Below are positions 2,685 through 18,869 of a stretch of 64,000 nt of DNA, one piece after another. A program made the translations under genes and the position numbers. Source of the DNA: an uncultured Alphaproteobacteria bacterium (GTDB taxonomy: Bacteria > Pseudomonadota > Alphaproteobacteria > MPNO01 > UBA2964); contig OX638326.1 of assembly GCA_951812775.1 (NCBI GenBank), positions 320,335-384,334 of the forward strand, in the 5' to 3' direction. Within the stretch, counting starts at the first letter, position 1. Every line of letters starts with the position of its first letter. Under the pieces are notes generated by a model, which saw only the letters and a program-made list of their open reading frames with translations, was not told the origin of the DNA and searched no databases.

Positions 2685-3686
2685 ATGCGTTTACTTGTCC
2701 TTGTATTTGCGTCATGCCTTTTCGCGCAAACCTCCTATTCACAAGCCAAACCCGACTTTTCAGCCTGGCTGGAAAATGTTCGCGTCGAAGCAGCTAAGCG
2801 TGGCATCAAGCAATCAATAATCGATAGTGCCCTCAAAAACGTAAAACCCATTAAGCGCGTCCTAAAACGTGACCGCAATCAGTCTGAGTTCAAGCTCACC
2901 CTAAAGCGCTATCTCAACCGCGTCGTTACAAAGACAAACATTAAACGCGGACGGATAATGGCGGATCGTCATAAGGCGACCCTCAAAGCTGTTTCGAAAA
3001 AGTATGGCGTTCCCCCTAGAGTCATTTTAGCAATTTGGGGAATCGAAACGCGGTTTGGCCTTGTAAAGGCCAATGTCCCACTCATCCCTTCAGTTGCCAC
3101 ATTGGCTTATGATCGAAGGCGTTCTAAATATTTTCGCGGACAGCTATTTGCCGTTCTGCAAATGTTAGACCGCGGGTATATCGATCAAAAGAGTCTCTTT
3201 GGTTCATGGGCCGGGGCGATGGGACAGCCGCAATTTATGCCGTCGAGTTACCTTGCCTATGCCCAGGACTTCGATGGCGATGGCAGACGAGACATTTGGA
3301 AGAGCGTCCCGGACGTTCTAGCCTCGATTGCAAACTATCTGGCAAAGCATGGTTGGCGCTCTGATCTGAACTGGGGCAGGGAGGTAGCACTTCCTATTTC
3401 ATTTGCCGAAAGCCTGAAACCATTCAAAAGACGTGCTGCGCGTGGCTGCCGTGCCAGAACCTCCGAACCCAGATCACTTCCGGCATGGCAATCTGCAGGC
3501 ATTCGACATGTCAGTGGACAAGATCTGCCAACACGAAACATTTCCGCCGTACTTGTCCTTCCTGACGGTAAGGAAGGACGTACCTTCCTTACTTACAAAA
3601 ACTACGCCTCAATCATGGCATATAACTGTGCACATCTTTACGCTGTAACCGTTGGCGTTCTGTCAGATCGTATAGGAGGAAAATAG
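2685..3686 (+). CDS. mltB: lytic murein transglycosylase (MltB family), periplasmic
   Basis: Signal peptide MRLLVLVFASCLFAQ. The MltB-type motif PSSYLAYAQDFDGDGRRDIW is present. The ORF track starts it at 2640; the later ATG at 2685 is more likely the start. Confidence 0.7.
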   Translation: MRLLVLVFASCLFAQTSYSQAKPDFSAWLENVRVEAAKRGIKQSIIDSALKNVKPIKRVLKRDRNQSEFKLTLKRYLNRVVTKTNIKRGRIMADRHKATLKAVSKKYGVPPRVILAIWGIETRFGLVKANVPLIPSVATLAYDRRRSKYFRGQLFAVLQMLDRGYIDQKSLFGSWAGAMGQPQFMPSSYLAYAQDFDGDGRRDIWKSVPDVLASIANYLAKHGWRSDLNWGREVALPISFAESLKPFKRRAARGCRARTSEPRSLPAWQSAGIRHVSGQDLPTRNISAVLVLPDGKEGRTFLTYKNYASIMAYNCAHLYAVTVGVLSDRIGGK

Positions 3687-4667: not shown

Positions 4668-5831
4668 ATGCTTGATCTGAAAGGTCTTTCCGTGTTTCAA
4701 CCCATAAAACGCTCCACCCTGATTGGCGTTTGTGTTTGTTTAATCTCAAATTCTTTGGCCGCGCAAACGATAGAGACGGCCGCCCGTCACGCAGTTCTCT
4801 ATGACCTGACCACGGACGCTATATTGTTGGATAAGGCGTCTGACGTGCCAATGCCCCCGGCATCCATGAGTAAACTGATGACCGTCTATATGGTCTTCGA
4901 ACGTCTCAAGGCCGAACGGTTAAGTCTGGATGACAAGTTTGTTGTCAGTCGCAAAGCCTGGCGCAAGGGCGGATCAAAGATGTTTGTCATGGTCAACACC
5001 CGTGTCGCCGTCAAAGACCTGCTACGCGGCATTATCATTCAGTCGGGCAATGACGCCTGTATTGTCATCGCCGAAGGAATTTCAGGTTCCGAAGCAGCCT
5101 TTGCAGCTGAAATGACCCGAAAAGCCAAAGAAATCGGGCTCACGAATAGTGCATTTAAAAACGCTACCGGATGGCCAGCGGAAGGCCATCACATGTCGGC
5201 CCGCGATATCGCAACACTATCCAAGAAACTCATTGTTGATTTTCCGGAATATTACAAACTCTTCAGTGAAGTCGATTTCACCTATGGTGGTATCAAACAG
5301 GGAAACCGGAATCCTTTGCTCTATAGAGGGTTTAATGCCGATGGTCTGAAGACTGGTCACACAGAGGCTTCCGGATACGGACTCGCTGCATCAGTGATCC
5401 GGAAAGGACGCAGACTGCTTCTGGTTATCAATGGATTAAACAGTAAAAGGGCGAGAGCATCAGAGTCGGCGCGACTCCTTGACTGGGCATTTCGAGAAAC
5501 TGCCTCCTACGCTCTTTTCAAAAAGGATGAAGTAATTGAACAAGCCGATGTCTGGTTGGGAAACGCTTCGAGTCTTCCACTGGTTGTCGGTAAAAAAATT
5601 ACGCTAACAATGTCCCGCAAAGCCCGGCATGGAATGAAGGTAAAAGTCAGCTATACCAACCCCGTACCGGCGCCAATAAAAAAGGGAACCTCGGTTGGCA
5701 TGGTAACCGTCACGGCGCCGGGAATAGAGCCAATTCAGGTCCCCTTAATCGCGAACGCGGATATCGAACAACTTGGTGCGATGGGGCGGCTAAACGCTGC
5801 CGTAAAATATCTGCTTTTCGGCGGCTCTTGA
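4668..5831 (+). CDS. D-alanyl-D-alanine carboxypeptidase (PBP5/6 family)
   Basis: Signal peptide. SMSK (SxxK) active-site motif, SGN motif and KTG motif. Confidence 0.8.
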   Translation: MLDLKGLSVFQPIKRSTLIGVCVCLISNSLAAQTIETAARHAVLYDLTTDAILLDKASDVPMPPASMSKLMTVYMVFERLKAERLSLDDKFVVSRKAWRKGGSKMFVMVNTRVAVKDLLRGIIIQSGNDACIVIAEGISGSEAAFAAEMTRKAKEIGLTNSAFKNATGWPAEGHHMSARDIATLSKKLIVDFPEYYKLFSEVDFTYGGIKQGNRNPLLYRGFNADGLKTGHTEASGYGLAASVIRKGRRLLLVINGLNSKRARASESARLLDWAFRETASYALFKKDEVIEQADVWLGNASSLPLVVGKKITLTMSRKARHGMKVKVSYTNPVPAPIKKGTSVGMVTVTAPGIEPIQVPLIANADIEQLGAMGRLNAAVKYLLFGGS

Positions 5832-6524: not shown

Positions 6525-7618
6525 CTGATACTGACGACACCAGGCATCCACGACACAATCCCCAACTGATCGGGCATAGCGCTGCAGAACAGAAGTTTCT
6601 TTCGATCTGGAAATCCGAACGAATTCCCCATGGGTGGCTTCTGACCGGTCCCCGGGGCATCGGCAAAGCAACATTGGCCTTTCGCATTGCCCGATTTGTT
6701 TTATCCAATGGGGGCGATCAAGCATCTTCACCAGGATTGTTTGGCGAGCCCGCCGTCCCAAACCTTGAACTTGACGAGGAGAGTCCGGTTTTTCGGCGCA
6801 TTGCATCGGGTGGCCACGCGGACCTTATGACTCTCGAACGAACGATAAATCCAGATACGAATAAAATGCGGTCGAACATCGCCGTTGAAAATGTCCGTTC
6901 TGCAGGCGATTTCCTACGTTTAACAGCATCCGAAGGCGGTTGGCGTGTCGTCATTATCGACAGTGTCGACGAGCTTAACGTCAATGCTGCGAATGCACTG
7001 CTTAAAATTCTGGAGGAACCGCCGAATAACGCTTTATTGCTTCTTGTTTGCCATGCACCTGGCCGTCTTTTGCCAACAATCCGCTCGCGATGTTGCCAGA
7101 TGCCGCTCTTACCATTGCCAGAAACGGATGTTGCGTCGATTTTGCAAAGCGCCAGTCCGGATTTACCCGCCGGTGATCTACAGCCCCTTTGTCAGCTCTC
7201 CGATGGAAGTCCGGGCAGGGCAGTCGCCCTCGCGGAAGAAGGCGGGCTCGAGCTGTACCGCGAGTTGGTTTCGTTACTGGTCAGTCTTCCCAATACCGAA
7301 ACCTCCGCCATCCATAGTTTTGGCGATCGCCTTGCCAGACGGGGTGCCGAAGACAGTTTTCGCCTCGTTACCGAACTCCTCTCCTGGTGGATAAGCCGCC
7401 TTACACGCATGGGCGCCCGGGGATTGGAAATACCCAATATTGTACCAGAAGAGGAGGGGTGCGCAGCCCGTTTGCTAGCTGCAACAGGGGTTGATCACTG
7501 GCTGGAGGTATGGGAGAAGGTCAACACGTTGGCTCGTCAAACGGATGGGTTAAACCTCGATAAAAAACAAGCCCTACTAAACATGTTTCATGCGCTTAAG
7601 GGTGCTGCAACAGGTTGA
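6521..7618 (+). CDS. holB: DNA polymerase III subunit delta-prime
   Basis: AAA+ motif HGWLLTGPRGIGKATLA. Start overlaps the tmk stop. Confidence 0.85.
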   Translation: MTDTDDTRHPRHNPQLIGHSAAEQKFLSIWKSERIPHGWLLTGPRGIGKATLAFRIARFVLSNGGDQASSPGLFGEPAVPNLELDEESPVFRRIASGGHADLMTLERTINPDTNKMRSNIAVENVRSAGDFLRLTASEGGWRVVIIDSVDELNVNAANALLKILEEPPNNALLLLVCHAPGRLLPTIRSRCCQMPLLPLPETDVASILQSASPDLPAGDLQPLCQLSDGSPGRAVALAEEGGLELYRELVSLLVSLPNTETSAIHSFGDRLARRGAEDSFRLVTELLSWWISRLTRMGARGLEIPNIVPEEEGCAARLLAATGVDHWLEVWEKVNTLARQTDGLNLDKKQALLNMFHALKGAATG

Positions 7619-10476: not shown

Positions 10477-10496
10477 CCTCAGCCCAACTCGACCCC
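10477..10496 (-). repeat. partial Tn3-family terminal inverted repeat (outer 20 bp, GGGGTCGAGTTGGGCTGAGG on the minus strand)
   Basis: Identical to the outer 20 bp of the IR at 18033-18071. The match continues imperfectly through 5 flanking bp (tgcat vs ttcat). Confidence 0.6.
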
Positions 10497-10504
10497 TGCA
10501 TCGG

Positions 10505-10975
10505 GCGCTCGATGTTACCTTCCGGCAGGACGATTGCCGCATCAGAACCGGAAATGCCACAATCAATCATGCAGCAATGAACCTGCTACGCCGCGCGCCG
10601 GACAAACTCAGCCTGCCGCAAAAACGCCGATCAGCGGCATGGGACGACACCTACATGGAAGCCGTAATCCGACAATAGCCGTTCGGTCGATTCCCCTGGG
10701 GGGAAGGTCCAGGAACAAACCTTCATCGACAACTGGCCCGACGTTTTGGGATGCACGGCCACGATGCTTTCTGGCAAGGTGCCGCCAAGCCAACTGCTCA
10801 GGCAATTGTCGGCCCGTCCGCGCAAGCACGATCCGGCCATCGCGATGCGGGTATTTCATCAGCTTGAGGTCGGTTGCATTGACCTGCGTATGGCCGTTGA
10901 AGCGCCGGAAATGCTCATCTACTACGGTCGTGTTCAGGAACACGGCCAATCCACGGGCAAGCGCTTCGGGTAAGC
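10505..10975 (+). pseudogene. tnpA: decayed Tn3-family transposase (TnpA) C-terminal fragment with multiple frameshifts and stops
   Basis: Plus-strand frames give QEQTFIDNWPDVLGCTATMLSGKVPPSQLLRQLSARPRKHDPAIAMRVFHQLEV. This aligns to the NWPDVLRCIATMLSGHLLRKLAARPRQHDLALALREIGRVE segment of the tnpA at 16913-18028. Confidence 0.6.
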
Positions 10976-11049
10976 CGTGTTTGTTCTCATGAAATAGGTT
11001 CATGTGGTTCTCGAAGCCCAGCCCCGAATGATCGCCAAAAGCGGCAGGA

Positions 11050-11286
11050 TCAACAACGCTCGCTACCACGCGGCGCTTTTCCTCTTTCGACGAGAAGCGG
11101 CGTACCACGCAATAAAAGCCACTTTTCCGTCTCGTCATTACGCATGATCGCGTTGGGCTTCTTCAGGCCAGGCACGGGCCAGACGGTGCCGCTGTCATCT
11201 TGAACACCTGAAACCTTTCCGCTTTTCAATGCTTTTGTAAAAGTTGGCCGGGATACTTGGTAAATCTTTACCGCTTCTTTCATGGA
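11050..11286 (-). CDS. small helix-turn-helix DNA-binding protein (excisionase/AlpA-like HTH), about 78 aa from MKEAVK
   Basis: HTH-like motif KEAVKIYQVSRPTFTKALKSGKVSGVQDDSGTVWPV. The longer ORF to 11409 has no better start support. Confidence 0.4.
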   Translation of the reverse strand, partial: SMKEAVKIYQVSRPTFTKALKSGKVSGVQDDSGTVWPVPGLKKPNAIMRNDETEKWLLLRGTPLLVERGKAPRGSERC

Positions 11287-11469
11287 AACATTAGCCACGT
11301 TGAACACTCTATTCGCTGTCTTCTGGAGGGTTGCCAAATTCGGGCAAATCTGGCTCAAGGCCGGGGAAAGATGGCTGCTCAAAATTCGATCAGACCTACC
11401 TCCCCCCAATAACTTGTTGATTTCATTGGTTCGAAAATTTGCCCTTTCTTATGATCTACAGAAAGGAAG

Positions 11470-11528
11470 AAAAATCCACCCACGTTCGATCGGGGGTGCA
11501 CCCCCGATCGAACGTGGGTGGATTTTTT
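11470..11528. terminator. 58-bp perfect palindrome (24-bp arms, TGCA centre) flanked by A5/T6; probable bidirectional rho-independent terminator
   Basis: AAAAATCCACCCACGTTCGATCGGGGG TGCA CCCCCGATCGAACGTGGGTGGATTTTTT read directly from the sequence. Confidence 0.6.
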
Positions 11529-11581
11529 GACTGACAAACGTGACCAAGGAGCCTGTTCCACTACTTACAGCTAAACTTACC

Positions 11582-11617
11582 GTTGCGGCTTGACCGCGAA
11601 TTTTGAACAGCTACAAT
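11582..11617 (+). CRISPR. single 36-nt type II-C CRISPR repeat (GTTGCGGCTTGACCGCGAATTTTGAACAGCTACAAT) with no spacers
   Basis: Length and 3' end (GCTACAAT, -10-like) match the Neisseria-type II-C repeat architecture. It lies 73 bp downstream of cas2 on the opposite strand, and residues 12-28 are perfectly complementary to the candidate tracrRNA anti-repeat at 16398-16414. No further copy occurs within 70 bp on either side. Confidence 0.75.
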
Positions 11618-11690
11618 AGATGTCCGGATAGAACTTTGTAATCACAAGGTTTTATCCGGGGTCTGTTGACTATTTTCTGTCCGAATCGTA

Positions 11691-12035
11691 TCAGAACATC
11701 ACCAGTTGCTCCGGATTCTCACGAGCTTTGCGGCGGCCCTGATCCGATAAATGTATGATATCACGATATTGCCGGTCCGTGAAATTCAGGATTTGCACAT
11801 CGCCGGCATCGGGCAAGTTGCGTTCAATCCGGAGGACCCGGGCCGAAAACGCCTCTTTCCCGTTCACGAACCGCGCATAGACCGAAAATTGGCTGCGCTC
11901 GAACCCTTCGTCCAGCAGGAAATTGCGAAAGCTGCCCGCGTCCTTTTGCTGTTTCTTCGTGTCCGTGGGCAGGTCGAACATCACGAGAATCCACATGAGA
12001 CGATACCTCGACAACCGGGTGATGGTTGTCGTCAT
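11691..12035 (-). CDS. cas2: CRISPR-associated endoribonuclease Cas2 (type II)
   Basis: LSRYRLMWILVMFDLPTDTKKQQKDAGSFRNFLLDEGFERSQFSVYARF closely parallels Streptococcus type II Cas2. Overlaps the cas1 stop by 4 bp. Confidence 0.9.
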   Translation of the reverse strand: MTTTITRLSRYRLMWILVMFDLPTDTKKQQKDAGSFRNFLLDEGFERSQFSVYARFVNGKEAFSARVLRIERNLPDAGDVQILNFTDRQYRDIIHLSDQGRRKARENPEQLVMF

Positions 12036-12967
12036 TTTCCCAGTCCAGCCAGTGCAAGAGGATCGGGAGGGTCGGGCAAGGCGAGAGTCAATTTGGCCGC
12101 TTCAAAACTCTGCCCCAAGGATGTCGCCAGCTTTATCAGAGCGACCGAGACCGGTGTGACACCATCGCCCAAAGGCAGGTCTGTGGCTATCAGGCGGGCG
12201 AGTTGCTGCTTGGCCTCTGTGTCGACCTCTGGTCCACATTTTGCCGCGATGGCCCGAACCGTACAGTCGACCAGTGGGCGAAAGGGCTCCATCAGGTCAT
12301 CGGCCAAAGCAAAGGCGTTGCCGCGGTTTGCGTGAAATAGGCCTATGGTCGGATGCAGACCCGCGGCAACGACGGCGCGGGCGGTGGCGGCACGCAAGAC
12401 CGTGTAGCCATAATTCAGCAGCGCGTTTTCCCGATCTGCCGACGTGTTGCGGCGAAAATCCGAACCCATCATACGTGGCCAGTAGTAGCGGGCCGCCTGT
12501 GCCTCGATGTTGGTTCTGTCACCCGAAGATATCTTGCGGATCATCATTTCCAGTGGCGCGGACGGCTCGCCAATTGCCGAAAGGGCAGCTGCCTGCATTC
12601 TAACCTTGGAAGTTACGATCTGTTTCCAGGCCTGTTTGGTAAACGATGCCTTGGCGTTCCATTGTGCTCGCATTCGCGCTCCCTGTATGTGATGGCCTTC
12701 CAGCGGCATGAGAACGGATTTAGGGGCATGATTGGCGGCACAAAGGACCACCGGCGCACCGCGCTCGGCAAGCTCGACCAAAAGAGAGGAAGACCATGTT
12801 GTGCCATGGGCATGCACGATGACGCCTGCGATCTGGTCGAGCGGGGTGCGGCCGATTTCGGTCCCGTGTTCCGTGACCTTAAGAAAACCCCGGTCGCGCG
12901 ACAAATGGCGCCCGTCGGTTGCAATATCAATGATCTGATCCAATACAACACCCCGTGCAAAAGACAT
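12032..12967 (-). CDS. cas1: CRISPR-associated endonuclease Cas1 (type II)
   Basis: Cas1 signature ALLNYGYTVLRA. About 311 aa. Immediately downstream of cas9. Confidence 0.9.
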   Translation of the reverse strand: MSFARGVVLDQIIDIATDGRHLSRDRGFLKVTEHGTEIGRTPLDQIAGVIVHAHGTTWSSSLLVELAERGAPVVLCAANHAPKSVLMPLEGHHIQGARMRAQWNAKASFTKQAWKQIVTSKVRMQAAALSAIGEPSAPLEMMIRKISSGDRTNIEAQAARYYWPRMMGSDFRRNTSADRENALLNYGYTVLRAATARAVVAAGLHPTIGLFHANRGNAFALADDLMEPFRPLVDCTVRAIAAKCGPEVDTEAKQQLARLIATDLPLGDGVTPVSVALIKLATSLGQSFEAAKLTLALPDPPDPLALAGLGK

Positions 12968-13021: not shown

Positions 13022-16000
13022 TTACCTTTGCCGTAAGGGATTCCGCAGGCGACCCATTTCATCCACATGGACCCTTCGGACATTAGCTTTTACAAGGGGC
13101 CTTGCTCTCATACATCTGAAACGAAACGTATCGGTCCTGTCGCGGTTGCGAGCATCGGCATTGGCCTCGTTATGGGGGGCAATACAGAGCCCGTTGGCAC
13201 CCAGGCTTTGCACATAGCCAATGATTATTTTGCGATCTCGTTCTTCAATCGCAACCATGTCCCGTTTGAAGACCCGCAGCAACCGTTTCGCAGCGGGGTG
13301 GGGCCGTTTCACGGCGCCTGACTGATGCGCCTCGAAAGTCGTGATCACCTGGGGTTCGATCTTGCCGTCGGGCATGCGCCAGATCTCGTAGCAGTGATTA
13401 CTGTCGCCTTTGTAGGCCTTGAACTCCTTGCCATCACGGTCGGTAACCGGCACCCGGGCGCTTTTCTGCAAGGTCTCCACCATTCGCACACGGCGCAATC
13501 CGAAATACGGGTTGTCCGATTGATCCGGCCAGATCTTGGATTATACGGGCCAGGTGACGTTGCAGGTCCGCGTCGCGGATGTTGGTGCCTTTTGTGGTGA
13601 TCTTGATGTCATTTGCGCTAAGCGACCTCAGCGGCTTACGGCTGACCACCTTGCCGTCACGGGCCAATCCGTAGGCGGTATCATTGTGCAATTGCCCAGT
13701 CGTGCTGTCCTTGCCCGATGCGCGGGCGGCGGGGTCGATACGGCCATGATCGGCCCGGTGACTGACGATGATGCGATCGAGCTGCGCGGCGATGTCGGCC
13801 CGGAATTCTTCCCACGGTGGCGCGACGGAGCGGGCCACTTCTTCAGCGCCATCGCGTTTATCTCGGGAGGCCGTATCGCTGATGCGCTTGATCAAAGAAC
13901 GATCCGTTGCCGCGACCACGGCCGCGTCGATTGCGTGGTGGCGGTGATCCGTGCGGTTCTTGGCCTTCACCGCCCCATCCTTGTCGGGCAAAAGACTGTT
14001 CAGCCCCCAGTGCCGACGCAGCATTTCGGTCAGCCTTCCGGGCACGACCCAAACATGGGATTTGCTGTCGGTGCCATCGTAAAGAGCACCTAGATAGGCG
14101 CGGGCGATGCGCGACAGGTACTGCGTGTCCTTCAAGGCGCGGGTGGAAAAGTCATTTTCGCCCTCGAACCGCTCCATCGCGTCAGGCGCGAAACGCCAGG
14201 CTTTGTTTTTGGGCAGGTTCTTAAGGTTTGCGGCAATCACCTCCCACTGATCGGTCTCACCCCAAGCCTCCCATGGGGTCCTATTCGTCTTTTGCCGGTT
14301 GAATTCCTTCAGACAGAGGGTGCGGTTGGCGAAGCGGTCATCCAATGTGCGCGAATAGGGTAGGATGTGATCTACATCGCAGGAGCCATCGAAAAGCATG
14401 GCCGCACTGATCCGTTTCCCGGAATATGGACAGTTGCGGGTCATGACGTCTTCGCCAAGGTCTTCCCACAGCCGCAGCCGCATGCGGTTGGCCCCGGTAT
14501 CGGGCACGCCCAGTTCTTCCAGCTTTTTGCGGCGCCGGTCCGCTGCCTCGGTGTTTTTCTTGATGTCGCTCTCGACGGCGCGTTTTTGGTCTTTGGACAA
14601 TTTCAAATCGCGGGCCAGTTCTACCACGATCTCGTCAGGTTTGCCGTAGACAGTGATGATCCGGTTCACCAATCGGCGAAGCTGGTTCAGCCCGATATGC
14701 ACCGTGGGGTTGGTAATGCGACCGAAACGGGCGATGTCATCGTCGTTCTCGTCGTAGGTGCCCGGAATGACGTGACGGCCGAGCACCTCGCCATAATAGG
14801 GAAGTTCGTCCAATATCTCGCCGGTGCGCTCATCCGAGTGATGCCAGCCACAGCGGGCCACGGCCTCGCTATACGGGATCACCTCGGCCTCCAGCGCGGC
14901 AAGGATGCGAGAAGTGGCCGACAGTCCCAGCCGTCCGTAACCTTCGGGCAGGGGGGCATGGGCGACCTCTTTGGCATGGTTGCAATGAAGACTATGGGTG
15001 GAGGTCAGCCATGCGACCAGCCTGTCATGTTCCGCCTCGCTTTGCACGGCGCGGATGCGCTCGATGACCTGCCATTGTGCCTCGACAGCCAGCGTCGACC
15101 AGCGTGGCCCGAACCGTCGGGGGTCGGACAAGCTGGCACGGACCGGATCGCAGGAGATGGCATCCCGATTGGCGGTTTGAAGCGTGAAATTCTGATTGGA
15201 GCGCAAGCCGATCAGCGTGCCAAGCGCCTTGAGCTTCATTGACATGTTCGACGGCGATTCCGTGTGCTTTTTGTTGTCCAGCGCGTGGAGGATTTGGTCA
15301 CGTTCTTCCAGGGTCAGGCTACGTGCCGACTCGCCCCGTGCCGCAACGCGCAAGGCGTTGACTGTTTCAACCAGAATGCGCCGCTGGTGCAGGGGATGGG
15401 CGCTGGGGACGCGCCGTTCGTCGGTGAAGAGGCAAAGCCCCACCTCGGGCGTCTTCAAAGGGCGCTGGTGAAAAATGACCTTGCTGATCTCATCGCGCAG
15501 TTCATCAGTCAAAACATCAGGTTGAAACCGGGCTTGCGACGCCCACAGCTTGTCGAACTCCTCCCGCAGATGGCGGCGGTCGGGGTAGAAATCATAGCCC
15601 GGTTCCTCTTTCTCGGAATTGTTGCGTCGGGCGACGGACAAGTGGGTACGCACCGAAGGCACATGTTTCGGATCGTCCGCCGAAATGCGACGCATATGTA
15701 AAAACTCGCCATAGGTTCGGGCGCCCTTGACCATCATCGCTTTCTCCAGCCGCGCGGTGGCGTCCTTGATCTTGCCGCTATCATTGTCTCTGCGGTCGAT
15801 CTTGCGGTTGGATTTGAACCCACGACGTTGATTCAAATGAAACAGCGCCCGTCCGAGGTGCGAAAGCGGCAGTTCCCGATCCAATCCCTCGGCGCGAAGC
15901 GCATATGGATCGAGTTGCACCAGTTCCTTCGCCTTGTCAGGGTCCGATGGCATCAGCCCCGCCGAGGCCATGCGTTTCATCAGCGCGGCTTTACGGCGCA

Positions 16001-16193
16001 TAAACCTGTCGCGACGCCGACGCTGGGCACGGGCGGCACGGCGATCTACAGCTAATGAAGCTTTGGTTTTGGGATTGCGGCCGTCCGAGAATATGCGAAC
16101 GCCCCTGTCGACAACCTTTGTGACTTCACCGTTTTCGGTGGCATAAAGCCACCAGCCTATAGAATTTGTACCAACATCCAGGCCAAGACGCAT
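13022..16193 (-). CDS. cas9: Cas9 (type II-C, about 1070 aa) interrupted by a frameshift: main ORF 13434-16193 plus C-terminal PAM-interacting segment 13022-13498 in the +1 frame
   Basis: RuvC-I MRLGLDVGTNSIGWW, HNH DVDHILPYSRTLDDRFANRTLCLKEFNRQKTNR and RuvC-III HHAIDAAVVAATD are present. The C-terminal fragment VRMVETLQKSARVPVTDRDGKEFKAYKGDSNHCYEIW resembles II-C PI domains. The frames cross near 13505-13540. Confidence 0.9.
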
Positions 16194-16354
16194 TCGATCA
16201 CCATTTCACTATTACGCAGTCTGTTGAGTTTTACTATGCCTGAGGAACCAGCCATGGTCAAGACATGGCTGGTTGGTGTTTGCAAGATTGCTGCCTGGGT
16301 CCACACCAAGATAATGCAACTGCCTCCTGCTATCGCTCGATAACGGGAAGTCTG

Positions 16355-16391
16355 TTGGTTGCGCCTTGACACGCAAATTTTGAACAGCTAT
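16355..16391 (+). repeat. degenerate CRISPR repeat copy (about 85% identical, 37 nt) immediately upstream of the tracrRNA; likely supplies its -10 box (TATACT)
   Basis: GTTGCGCCTTGACACGCAAATTTTGAACAGCTATACT compared with the repeat at 11582-11617. Confidence 0.65.
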
Positions 16392-16397
16392 ACTGAC

Positions 16398-16484
16398 GTC
16401 GTTCAAAATTCGCGGTCGGGCCGTTAACAAGCATTCGATTGCACCACATTGAGACGCAGGCTACGGCCTGCGTTTTCTTGTTTT
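16398..16484 (+). ncRNA. tracrRNA: candidate tracrRNA: anti-repeat, linker, GC hairpin terminator
   Basis: GTTCAAAATTCGCGGTC (16398-16414) is the exact reverse complement of repeat positions 11-27, and the following GGGCCGTTAAC extends the pairing. Hairpin ACGCAGGC-TACG-GCCTGCGT with a TTTCTTGTTTT tail at 16451-16481. Transcribed divergently from cas9. Confidence 0.7.
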
Positions 16485-16912
16485 CGGCTTGGCTCTTCTC
16501 AACGGTGTGCTTCCCGGATTTCCGCTGGAGTAATTCTACGAACAACCCTTGCCAACCCGGAAACCCCGCCTGCTACCCGTCTGGATATCGCTGTCCATTG
16601 CCTCCACCTCCCGCCCGGTTCCTCTTGAATCCAAGATATAAAACAATGCTAAATATTATTTAGCATTATAAAACACCGCCTTCCGCAAGGCGCTTGTCCT
16701 ACCCCTTTCCGGGCCGTTTTCCCCTCCAAAACAGGCGTTTCTCCGCGCCGGAATCTTCCGGCCATGCCACGGAAGCAATCATGAATGATGTCAATGCATT
16801 GCCGATGGCATGCAGGTCACATCAAAACGAACCTCGTTTTGATGTATAATCATGTCTTTTGCTAAGATAATGATTATTTTATGTCGGATATTTCCGGCTC
16901 AAAGAAAGATAC

Positions 16913-18028
16913 ATGGACCCGAACGACAGGCACAAAAACCAGCGCAAATTCATTGCAGCCAGAAAGGCCGAAGGGCTCAATCTGGGCTTGAGCAAAATGG
17001 CCAACGCCACCAGCACCCATGACTTTATGCAGCTCTCTCGGCTGTCGCGTTGGCATGTGGAAAGCGACTGCATGGCCCGCGCATTGGCTATGGTGATCGA
17101 GGCACAGGCGCGATTGCCGATGGCGCAATTCTGGGGGGGGGGGCAAACCGCCTCCAGCGACGGGCAGTTCTTTCCCGCCACTCGCCAAGGCGAGGCGCTG
17201 AATCCCATCAATGCAAAATATGGGCGGGAGCCCGGGCTGAAAGCCTACACCCATGTGACGGATCAATACGCGCCCTTCGCCACGCAGGTCATCCCCGCCA
17301 CGGTGAACGAGGCGCTGTATATCCTGGATGGGTTGCTCATGAATGAGGCAGGGCGGAAGATCAAAGAGCAGTACGCCGATACCGGCGGGTTCACTGACAT
17401 GGTCTTCGCAACCACATCATTGCTTGGATATCTCTTCCATCCCCGCATCCGTGACCTTGCCTCCAAGAGATTGCATGTCTTTGACACGCGATCTGTCCCA
17501 AAAGAACTGAAGGGCCTGACGGGTGATCGGATCCGTGAAACCACGATCATCGCCAATTGGCCCGACGTCTTGCGCTGTATCGCAACGATGCTGTCCGGCC
17601 ATCTCCTCAGGAAATTGGCGGCACGACCGCGGCAGCATGATCTGGCGCTTGCATTGCGCGAAATCGGACGGGTCGAACGAACGCTGTTCATCATTGAATG
17701 GCTGCTCAATACCGAGATGCAACGCCGCGCGAACATCGGCCTCAACAAAGGTGGGGCGCATCACGCACTGAAGGGGGCATTGCGGATCGGACGCCAAGGT
17801 GAAATCCGCGACCGCACAACAGAAGGCCGGCACTTCCGCATCGCAGGTCTGAACTTGTTGACTGCCATCATCATCTTTTGGAATACCAAGCAGCTGGGGA
17901 TCGCCGTCGCTCAACGCCAGAAAGCAGGGCTTGATTGCTCTCCAGACCTCCTGGCGCATATCTCGCCACTCGGATGGGCCCACATCCTTCCCACGGGCGA
18001 ATATCGGTGGCGGATAAAGAGGCCATGA
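16913..18028 (+). pseudogene. tnpA: 5'-truncated Tn3-family transposase TnpA (C-terminal 371 aa including the DDE region)
   Basis: ADTGGFTDMVFATTSLLGYLFHPRIRDL, ANWPDVL and HISPLGWAHILPTGEYRW are typical Tn3-family C-terminal blocks. There is no N-terminal half upstream. The stop lies 4 bp before the IR. Confidence 0.85.
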
Positions 18029-18032
18029 ACTG

Positions 18033-18071
18033 CTTAAAGGGGTTTTCCGCCCTCAGCCCAACTCGACCCCC
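18033..18071 (-). repeat. Tn3-family 38-bp terminal inverted repeat (GGGGGTCGAGTTGGGCTGAGGGCGGAAAACCCCTTTAAG read from the outer end)
   Basis: The GGGG outer end, internal GAAAAC and inner TAAG match Tn3/Tn1000/Tn21-type IR architecture. The outer end is 3 bp upstream of the tatD ATG. Confidence 0.8.
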
Positions 18072-18074
18072 TTC

Positions 18075-18869
18075 ATGCTGGTAGACAGCCACTGCCACCT
18101 GGATTTCGACAGCTTCGACGAAGATCGTGCTGAAACGATACAGCGGGCATTTGATGCCGGGGTTGGTATGCTCGTTACCATCTGTACACATTTCAGTAAA
18201 TTTGAAGAAATACTCGAGGTCGCAAAACTAGATACGAGAATTTATTGCTCTGTGGGTATTCATCCGCATCAGGTTGAGGAAGAACCAACTATCGCGCTCG
18301 AGAACCTGTTGGAAAGCGCAAAGCATCCCAAAGTAATCGGGATAGGGGAGACCGGACTGGACTATTATTACGATAAAAGTCCACGCGAAGACCAGAAATC
18401 CAGCTTTCGAACACACATCACTGCAGCCCGCGAAACGCAGCTACCCTTGATCGTACATACCAGAGATGCCGACGACGATATGGCTGCCATTCTTCGAGAG
18501 GAAATGCAGATCGGGTCCTTTCCATGCGTTTTACATTGTTTTTCCAGTGGCCGTGCTCTTGCTGAAACTGCGATTGATCTCGGGTTTTATCTGTCTTTGT
18601 CCGGTATTTTGACGTTCAAGAACGCTGGAGAGCTCCGCGGGATCATCCGTGATATGCCTGTCGATCGGTTGCTTGTTGAAACAGATTCACCTTATTTAGC
18701 ACCGGTTCCAAATCGAGGAAAAAGAAATGAGCCTTCCTTCGTGGTGCACACCGCGGAAAAGGCTTCTGAAATCAAAGGGTTGGCCCCTAAAACTTTTTCC
18801 GATACCACAACAGAAAACTTTTTCCGACTGTTTACAAAAGCACAATCAGAACAAGGCGCTCCGCAATGA
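18075..18869 (+). CDS. tatD: TatD family deoxyribonuclease/hydrolase
   Basis: MLVDSHCHLDF N-terminus. Conserved position after metG. Confidence 0.85.
   Translation: MLVDSHCHLDFDSFDEDRAETIQRAFDAGVGMLVTICTHFSKFEEILEVAKLDTRIYCSVGIHPHQVEEEPTIALENLLESAKHPKVIGIGETGLDYYYDKSPREDQKSSFRTHITAARETQLPLIVHTRDADDDMAAILREEMQIGSFPCVLHCFSSGRALAETAIDLGFYLSLSGILTFKNAGELRGIIRDMPVDRLLVETDSPYLAPVPNRGKRNEPSFVVHTAEKASEIKGLAPKTFSDTTTENFFRLFTKAQSEQGAPQ

Follow-up and report, generated by a model that had tools for sequence, protein, structure and literature searches.

A solo CRISPR repeat beside intact cas1 and cas2 and a frameshifted cas9: a type II-C locus probably in decay after horizontal transfer

A stretch of 64,000 nucleotides (nt) from an uncultured alphaproteobacterium (assembly GCA_951812775.1, contig OX638326.1, positions 320,335 to 384,334), hereafter called the window, carries the genes cas9, cas1 and cas2 together with one repeat of the CRISPR type, designated R1. 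Our analysis indicates that this is probably a horizontally acquired type II-C CRISPR-Cas locus in decay, of which the array was deleted amid mobile-DNA debris, and from which neither CRISPR RNA (crRNA) nor a working Cas9 would be made. The solo repeat is then an ordinary remnant, and the locus is one more CRISPR-Cas system decaying after horizontal transfer, in which both known escape routes, the loss of the array and the inactivation of cas9, are found side by side.

R1 is a 36-nt sequence, GTTGCGGCTTGACCGCGAATTTTGAACAGCTACAAT, on the + strand at 11582-11617 (the form of this repeat type for use as a query in CRISPR finders is GTTGCGGCTKGACCGCGAATTTTGAAC). At three or fewer mismatches, for which 0 chance matches are expected, R1 was single-copy in the window, and Tandem Repeats Finder detected no array in the 64 kb. 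After an ungapped scan of both strands with a cut-off of at least 21 matches in 36, only three places rose above the ceiling of shuffled sequences (21-22 of 36): R1 itself, the anti-repeat of the trans-activating CRISPR RNA (tracrRNA) gene (26/36, - strand, 16427), and a shifted match at 16359 on a degenerate repeat copy, designated R2, which lies 4.7 kb from R1. Apart from R2 and the anti-repeat, no second array repeat was found in the whole window by the mismatch search or by the ungapped scan, and the two or more direct repeats with unique spacers by which a CRISPR array is recognized are reduced here to one repeat. The initial annotation, which had proposed an array with one repeat and zero spacers and no second repeat within 70 bp on either side, was thus correct as to array repeats, and its statement holds across the 64 kb, but it had overlooked the degenerate copy R2.

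The identity of R1 was established by comparison with related loci. R1 carries 35 of the 36 bases of the array repeat in type II-C loci of Rhodobacterales with about 80% identity, of which the arrays consist of 2 to 51 repeats. The arrays of two such loci, L001 and L003 (13 and 19 repeats, respectively), start 73 nt past the cas2 stop codon, exactly as R1 does. The L003 repeat reads GTTGCGGCTGGACCGCGAATTTTGAACAGCTACAAT on the complementary strand, the L001 version ends in ...CACT, and a single base sets R1 apart. When 185,579 species genomes were scanned for the core of the repeat, 30 stretches were obtained, all from Rhodobacterales and with up to 51 repeats. The same distance of 73 nt from cas2 and the 35/36 match together identify R1 as the leader-adjacent repeat of a real array. 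In the arrays of the relatives the degenerate repeats sit at the cas-distal end, indicating that the cas2-proximal end is the leader end, as is the case in Neisseria meningitidis (PMC12477760). Judged from these sequence comparisons, R1 is what remains, as the last unit, of a type II-C array that was once normal, in good agreement with the previous description of a lone 36-nt repeat at the position where a II-C array is expected.

The leader between R1 and the cas2 stop codon (11618-11690) has a length of 73 nt that is fixed in 20 relatives, and includes a hairpin (11624-11659), the stem of which is maintained among the relatives via many compensatory changes. A putative sigma70-like promoter, TTGACC-16-TACAAT, was detected within R1 (11590-11617) by a consensus promoter scan, in line with the earlier suggestion of a repeat-borne -10. 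The site agrees with the repeat-embedded promoters known from type II-C arrays, where the promoter lies in the upstream repeat and each crRNA begins around nucleotide 6 of the spacer that follows (PMC12477760). The R1 promoter should yield no crRNA from a single repeat, because a crRNA must end in the next repeat; as predicted from the sequence, it could transcribe only the leader hairpin and an antisense RNA of cas2. The hairpin starts at the point where the promoter of the last repeat would begin transcription.

The genes next to the leader are intact. The cas2 gene (11691-12035, - strand; Pfam CRISPR_Cas2, PADLOC Cas2_II) encodes a protein with 89% identity to that of Litoreibacter roseus over the full length without gaps, and the cas1 gene (12032-12967, - strand; Pfam Cas_Cas1, PADLOC Cas1 subtype II/NMENI) encodes a protein 85% identical to that of L. 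roseus over 303 amino acids (aa), again without gaps. The intact adaptation module that had been noted from the sequence is thus borne out. As to the start of cas1, the ATG of the relatives is TTG here (12941-12943, codon 9), and the open reading frame (ORF) reaches another ATG 8 codons upstream. Neither csn2 nor cas4 is present, and no further ORF exists between 11691 and 16193; by its gene content, cas9, cas1 and cas2 without csn2 and cas4, the locus is classified as type II-C.

The cas9 gene, of which the lesion had been missed in the initial annotation, is a pseudogene (13022-16193, - strand), as revealed by a split tblastn match and by a gap in the DNA alignment. It consists of an ORF of 919 aa (13434-16193) and an out-of-frame C-terminal piece of 158 aa (13022-13498), separated by a frameshifting deletion of 53 nt at about 13524-13528, where both L001 and L003 retain the 53 nt. 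By tblastn, the relative P0007 matched in two frames, -3 for residues 1-890 and -1 for residues 907-1070, with 16 residues missing. A gap of 53 nt is atypical of homopolymer sequencing errors. Homologues of the Cas9 ORF number in the thousands, the nearest being about 81% identical proteins of about 1074 aa from Rhodobacterales including L. roseus; full-length relatives range from 1064 to 1106 aa and are typically about 1074 aa. The frameshift precedes the domain interacting with the protospacer adjacent motif (PAM), which is not in frame with the rest of the protein, and no working Cas9 is expected from this sequence. With no crRNA possible and Cas9 broken, the locus should provide no immunity.

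Upstream of cas9 lies a tracrRNA gene (16401-16485, + strand), an element that had been left out of the initial annotation together with R2. It contains all the parts of a tracrRNA: an anti-repeat (16401-16428, + strand), a scaffold, and an intrinsic terminator hairpin with a T-tract (16451-16476, + strand). The gene is almost invariant across 12 loci. The anti-repeat is predicted to pair with R1 over 24 consecutive base pairs, a 1-nt bulge and 3 further pairs, and for R1 cofolded with the entire tracrRNA an energy of -70.8 kcal/mol was predicted. No Rfam family matched the tracrRNA or anything else in the locus.

The organization agrees well with the type II-C systems of N. meningitidis and Campylobacter jejuni: the gene order is cas9-cas1-cas2, the array is read towards cas2 with the end for new spacers beside cas2, the 36-nt repeat ends in ...GCTACAAT with a -10 element within each repeat, and the tracrRNA forms a long anti-repeat duplex and carries a terminator. 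The window differs from both in having one repeat and a frameshifted cas9, and in the location of its tracrRNA gene, which is upstream of cas9, divergent from it and provided with a repeat-derived promoter. Moreover, for the Rhodobacterales clade that includes its Cas9 (about 1074 aa) we found no biochemical characterization in the literature.

The DNA to the left of R1 is a patchwork of mobile elements. Two pieces, 11196-11377 and 11393-11557 (- strand), show 73-81% identity to the small RepL/MobQ roseobacter plasmids pTHAF27_d and pRIdsm_04, so that plasmid-derived DNA reaches within 24 nt of R1. The repL gene itself has been deleted from this DNA between two iterons, which are fused into one hybrid iteron (11371-11391). 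This hybrid iteron showed an inverted 15/16 match to the repeat core and was examined as a possible remnant of an anti-repeat; the candidate was rejected upon its identification as RepL-plasmid sequence, and its likeness to the CRISPR repeat seems to be due to chance. The perfect 58-bp palindrome at 11470-11527, correctly noted before, is a perfected version of the hairpin located upstream of repL in those plasmids. A Tn3 remnant had also been described beside the repeat; the DNA adjoining R1, palindrome included, is of the RepL plasmid, while Tn3-family scraps are indeed present farther away, at 10698-10851 to the left and at 16913-18070 on the other side of the locus. The former (10698-10851, + strand) is a scrap of a second Tn3-family transposase gene, about 70% identical to Tn3 transposase genes of Rhodobacterales plasmids. 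Next to it is the C-terminal third of a PstI-type (Eco57I-domain) DNA methylase gene (10848-11198, - strand), 89% identical to plasmid copies.

Between the end of the plasmid homology at 11557 and R1 remain 24 nt (11558-11581, + strand), which may be what is left, on the side of the repeat, of a 30-nt spacer that was truncated. For the 24-30 nt left of R1, no exact match was found in viral contigs and no match among 445 spacers of the relatives, and BLAST against phages and plasmids gave matches at chance level only. When the spacers of the relatives were compared with the RepL plasmids and with the window, only chance matches of 11-17 nt were obtained, and the integration of the plasmid by a spacer-mediated mechanism is therefore unsupported.

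The whole locus lies within foreign DNA. The GC content is about 58% at 12-18 kb of the window, against about 49% for the host. Host proteins share more than 90% identity with their counterparts in marine Rhodospirillaceae-like metagenome-assembled genomes (MAGs). In the related genomes tctC and tatD are separated by 117 nt (the empty site is seen at 7041-7159 of L036/L037), whereas 7.6 kb lies between the two genes in the window; on this comparison the 7.6-kb block is an insertion absent from the related Rhodospirillaceae-like genomes. Its right limit is a complete 38-bp terminal inverted repeat of the Tn3 family, GGGGTCGAG...CTTTAAG (18033-18070, - strand), right after which the host tatD starts at 18075. 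Its left limit is a 20-bp inverted-repeat tip (10477-10496, - strand), an exact duplicate of 18051-18070. The two copies are in direct orientation, and the left copy retains the outer 20 bp only. The right copy adjoins the 3' end of a 5'-truncated Tn3-family transposase gene, tnpA (16913-18028, + strand; Pfam DDE_Tnp_Tn3), which encodes the C-terminal 371 aa and matches positions 590-954 of the 954 positions of NCBIfam NF033527, the first 590 or so codons being missing. The nearest relatives of this tnpA, with about 77% identity, are on Rhodobacterales plasmids. The 38-bp repeat, starting with GGGG and ending with TAAG, and its location at the 3' end of tnpA are as expected for the Tn3 family; ends in inverted orientation with a complete transposase were not found. 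Two directly oriented transposon ends flanking donor-plasmid DNA in a chromosome are the arrangement of an unresolved Tn3-family cointegrate, from which the window differs in keeping 20 bp of the left copy and in showing no visible target-site duplication. Most likely the block arrived as such a replicative-transposition cointegrate with a roseobacter plasmid. The erosion of the cas genes and of the array in the window also resembles that of degenerate CRISPR-Cas loci on mobile elements.

From these observations we infer the following route and order of events. The cas9-cas1-cas2-leader-array unit and the tracrRNA gene would have originated from a roseobacter (Rhodobacterales) plasmid and entered the lower-GC chromosome of a Rhodospirillaceae-like marine bacterium between tctC and tatD as a never-resolved Tn3-family cointegrate. 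A simple deletion, rather than recombination between repeats, would then have taken all spacer-repeat units past R1 and brought the RepL-plasmid DNA to 24 nt from R1, and further deletions would have removed repL and 53 nt of cas9 and truncated the methylase gene and two transposase genes. In the neighborhood at least five deletions are recognized as distinct events (repL, the methylase gene, the two transposase genes and cas9), and one more deletion is thus the simplest account of the loss of the array. The end of the plasmid homology 24 nt before R1 fits with a deletion end point inside a spacer. The intact state of cas1, cas2, the leader and the tracrRNA gene points to recent decay. Among II-C N. 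meningitidis escapers from harmful targeting, cas9 mutation (38/62) and array collapse (13/62) were the two commonest events (PMC12477760), and we conjecture that the break of cas9 and the loss of the array, taken together, are compatible with selection against the system after its transfer.

Several points weigh against this interpretation. Another array with the same repeat could exist elsewhere in the 4.15-Mb genome, as the search spanned the 64-kb window; no lesion was seen in cas1, cas2, the leader or the tracrRNA gene, and part of the system could still act; the 24 nt adjoining R1 gave neither a protospacer nor a related spacer, leaving their status as a spacer remnant unsupported; and the only evidence for the cointegrate is the pair of directly oriented tips, the left junction and any target-site duplication being gone. 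In addition, the same picture would result if RepL DNA already lay past the array of the donor and the array collapsed between its repeats. In this case homologous recombination between the first and last repeats would have left one hybrid repeat next to a distal flank already consisting of RepL DNA, and cas9 would have been lost independently. Such collapse, one of the causes proposed in the initial annotation, is frequent in II-C Neisseria (PMC12477760), plasmid genes are found just past the arrays of relatives (for instance, Mob_Pre in L003), and the lack of a protospacer for the 24 nt beside R1 would be accounted for; still, nothing specific speaks in its support. The outer (5') end of R1 is a perfect consensus, whereas the distal repeats of the relatives are often degenerate there; the plasmid homology ends 24 nt short of R1 and not at R1; and the presence of several unrelated deletions around makes another deletion simpler. 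We therefore consider the repeat-repeat collapse unlikely, and truncation by the adjacent mobile-element rearrangement, also proposed before, fits best with the foreign plasmid DNA 24 nt away and the truncated mobile genes around.

Far less probable is that R1 represents a naive array, in which a working leader and one repeat await the first spacer. In N. meningitidis an engineered array cut to the leader-adjacent repeat (R26) is crRNA-null and super-adapts; in this II-C system one repeat beside the leader allows spacers to be acquired (PMC12477760). The window shares with R26 the leader plus one repeat, the impossibility of crRNA production, and the intact tracrRNA and cas1-cas2 genes, and in this respect is a natural counterpart of that engineered strain, with which array 'neogenesis' was studied; moreover, a relative, L055, also has one repeat after cas2, there with an intact cas9. 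L055 is, however, a short-read Logan contig, of which the array was possibly collapsed by the assembler. The Cas9 of R26 works and drives super-adaptation, whereas that of the window is frameshifted and without the in-frame PAM-interacting domain, and in N. meningitidis, upon deletion of cas9, acquisition falls from 44% to 2% and PAM selection is lost (PMC12477760). By analogy the window locus would be equivalent to R26 with a cas9 knockout, showing no interference and at best rare PAM-less acquisition (about 2% in PMC12477760), and no effector would be available even if spacers were gained. It is equally hard to accept that the true array was collapsed to one repeat by the assembler of the present genome. 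Repeat arrays are prone to collapse, and the short-read contigs L055 and L056 break or collapse at this very repeat, but the source of the window is a single contig of 4,149,033 nt, suggesting long reads; unique spacers normally prevent complete collapse; and the independent lesions in the block, such as the 53-nt deletion of cas9 and the deletion of repL, fit with real decay. Just as little weight was given to a non-immune role, previously offered as a reason for keeping the locus, by way of a leader RNA or an antisense cas2 RNA driven by R1, or of a tracrRNA that regulates independently of Cas9. The promoter-like site of R1 is good, the leader hairpin shows compensatory changes and the tracrRNA promoter is near-consensus; however, all three are common to the functional relatives, and no new role is needed to explain them. 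The frameshift of cas9, and the setting in an eroding insertion that is missing from related genomes, amid mobile-DNA debris and with no sign of selection in the host, contradict such a role.

The second repeat-derived element, R2 (GTTGCGCCTTGACACGCAAATTTTGAACAGCTATACT, 16358-16394, + strand), is located upstream of cas9 beside the anti-repeat, and retains 32 of the 36 repeat positions plus one inserted base; by BLAST it is about 88% identical to the repeats of the relatives. R2 constitutes the best promoter match of the region, the near-consensus TTGACA-17-TATACT, ending 6 nt before the anti-repeat. A -35 element of the TTGAC type was found 30-31 nt from the anti-repeat in all of the 13 tracrRNA loci first examined (13/13). 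A recognizable repeat copy before the tracrRNA was detected in the window and in L011, plus a shortened copy in L053, that is, in 3 of about 20 lineages examined. A scan of metagenomes for further lineages re-found the MAG of L011 only, and of seven more Cas9 relatives only L053 carries R2. In this sub-lineage the sequence suggests that the tracrRNA promoter is a repeat-borne promoter. It has been proposed that tracrRNAs arise from rearranged repeats landing next to a promoter (PMC6546382). R2 fits this proposal and sharpens it, in that in type II-C the repeat brings its own promoter, and thereby gives sequence-level support to the origin of tracrRNA genes from rearranged repeats.

Next to R2 we found a short sequence that is repeated in front of cas9. 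Site B (16349-16357, + strand), a spacer-like stretch abutting the 5' end of R2, and site A (16218-16226, + strand), 24 nt upstream of the cas9 start codon, are identical over 9 nt, AGTCTGTTG (P = 1.4e-3 in shuffled sequences). The corresponding shared sequences are GAAGTTTGTTG in L011 (11 nt, 28 nt from the cas9 start, P = 1.5e-4) and CCTTGTTA in L053 (8 nt, 18 nt from the cas9 start, P = 5e-3); in all three lineages the cas9-proximal match has the same strand and precedes the cas9 start codon by 18-28 nt. The sites of the relatives are located at about 5010-5290 of L011 and at 2770-3000 (- strand) of L053. Lineage-specific bases change together at both sites: L053 and the window differ by four such co-changes, L011 and the window by one. 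Site A lies just downstream of a conserved promoter-like element of cas9, TTGACC-17-CATAGT (16261-16233, that is, 16233-16261 on the - strand), which was found by the consensus scan and of which the -35 block GTCAAG is kept in the three lineages. Pairing of R2 with the anti-repeat is predicted both in trans and within a transcript of 16321-16485, and what all three lineages conserve of R2 is its spacer-proximal half, GTTGCNSCTTGAC.

This arrangement recalls tracr-L of the type II-A system of Streptococcus pyogenes, a natural single guide with which Cas9 represses its own promoter via an 11-bp match (Workman et al., bioRxiv 10.1101/2020.05.21.102756; summarized in PMC10120712). As with tracr-L, R2 precedes the anti-repeat, shares its strand and is able to pair with it, a guide-like stretch of 8-11 nt abuts R2 and matches the promoter or 5' region of cas9, and the promoter for the short tracrRNA is inside the repeat-like segment. 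We tentatively propose, while rating the chance that it is right as below even, that R2 plays a dual role in the sub-lineage consisting of the window, the MAG locus L011/L043 and the metagenome locus L053: the 3' half would promote the ordinary tracrRNA, whereas in a longer transcript the anti-repeat would be paired with the 5' half, and the 8-11 nt ahead of R2 would guide Cas9 to the start of the cas9 transcript for self-repression. The window differs from S. pyogenes in its II-C subtype, its dead effector and the lack of a long-form promoter in the consensus scan. Against the proposal stand the small number of lineages, three in total, and the absence of a promoter upstream of the guide: none for a long form of tracrRNA was found on the + strand at 16194-16357, either by the consensus scan, which is weak for alphaproteobacterial promoters, or by three-way conservation. 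In the window such a circuit would be a fossil, with cas9 dead and the candidate PAM altered. No tracr-L was detected in II-C Neisseria (PMC12477760). R2 with sites A and B provides a candidate, open to testing, for a built-in guide with which a type II-C Cas9 would repress its own gene, and no such guide is known for this subtype. If true, this would be the first tracr-L-like circuit in a II-C system and an extant case in which two promoter-bearing repeats, inverted relative to each other, make up a tracrRNA gene. L011 and L053, both with an intact cas9, are the systems suited for testing the guide.

In order to infer the PAM, the 445 spacers of the relatives were used as two concatenated queries, the first half against phages and plasmids and the second half against phages. 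The first half gave one perfect protospacer and one with 2 mismatches in phages, with the 3' flanks TGGGCGTC and CTGGTATT, too few for the determination of a PAM; it gave no match in plasmids, and the second half gave nothing usable in phages. A possible N2GG occurs at site A in both L011 (3' flank GGGGTT) and L053 (3' flank AGGGTT) and is absent in the window. The sequence AGTCTGT beside the distal repeat of L003 was considered as a site B-like element and rejected as a chance occurrence, as 29 other distal flanks carry nothing similar.

R2 may also be compared with the small CRISPR-Cas-associated RNAs (scaRNAs) of Francisella II-B and of N. meningitidis (PMC13431127; for a survey see PMC10120712), in which likewise a standalone degenerate repeat within the cas locus is accompanied by a short neighbor partially complementary to a promoter. 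The scaRNAs are encoded by genes of their own and act together with tracrRNA in trans, those of Francisella targeting non-cas genes, whereas R2 is fused to the tracrRNA gene and its match is to the promoter region of cas9 itself.

The intergenic region between cas9 and the tracrRNA gene contains another conserved block, TGCYGCYTGGGTCCACRCCARGAT (16283-16312 in the window), which is present in two copies each in L011 and L053 and could serve in the binding of a regulator or belong to an unrecognized promoter. The methylase fragment in the left flank is 89% identical to copies on plasmids of clinical Aeromonas, Pseudomonas and Enterobacterales, an unexpectedly close relation for the chromosome of a marine alphaproteobacterium. 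Leftovers of the R1 repeat family are not rare, as seen from three remnants. L055 (Logan SRR14610202_15027, a 16.7-kb short-read contig) carries cas1, an intact cas9 of 1073 aa and, at 5184-5219, one repeat 73 nt after cas2, representing either a natural solo-repeat locus or a collapse in short-read assembly. L042 has a solo repeat at 1099-1134 of a 1.5-kb marine contig. L007 (Salinihabitans flavidus DSM 27842) contains at 7420-7500 an orphan unit, in which a 30-nt spacer separates a partial repeat from a full one, without cas genes and with an adjoining serine recombinase gene.

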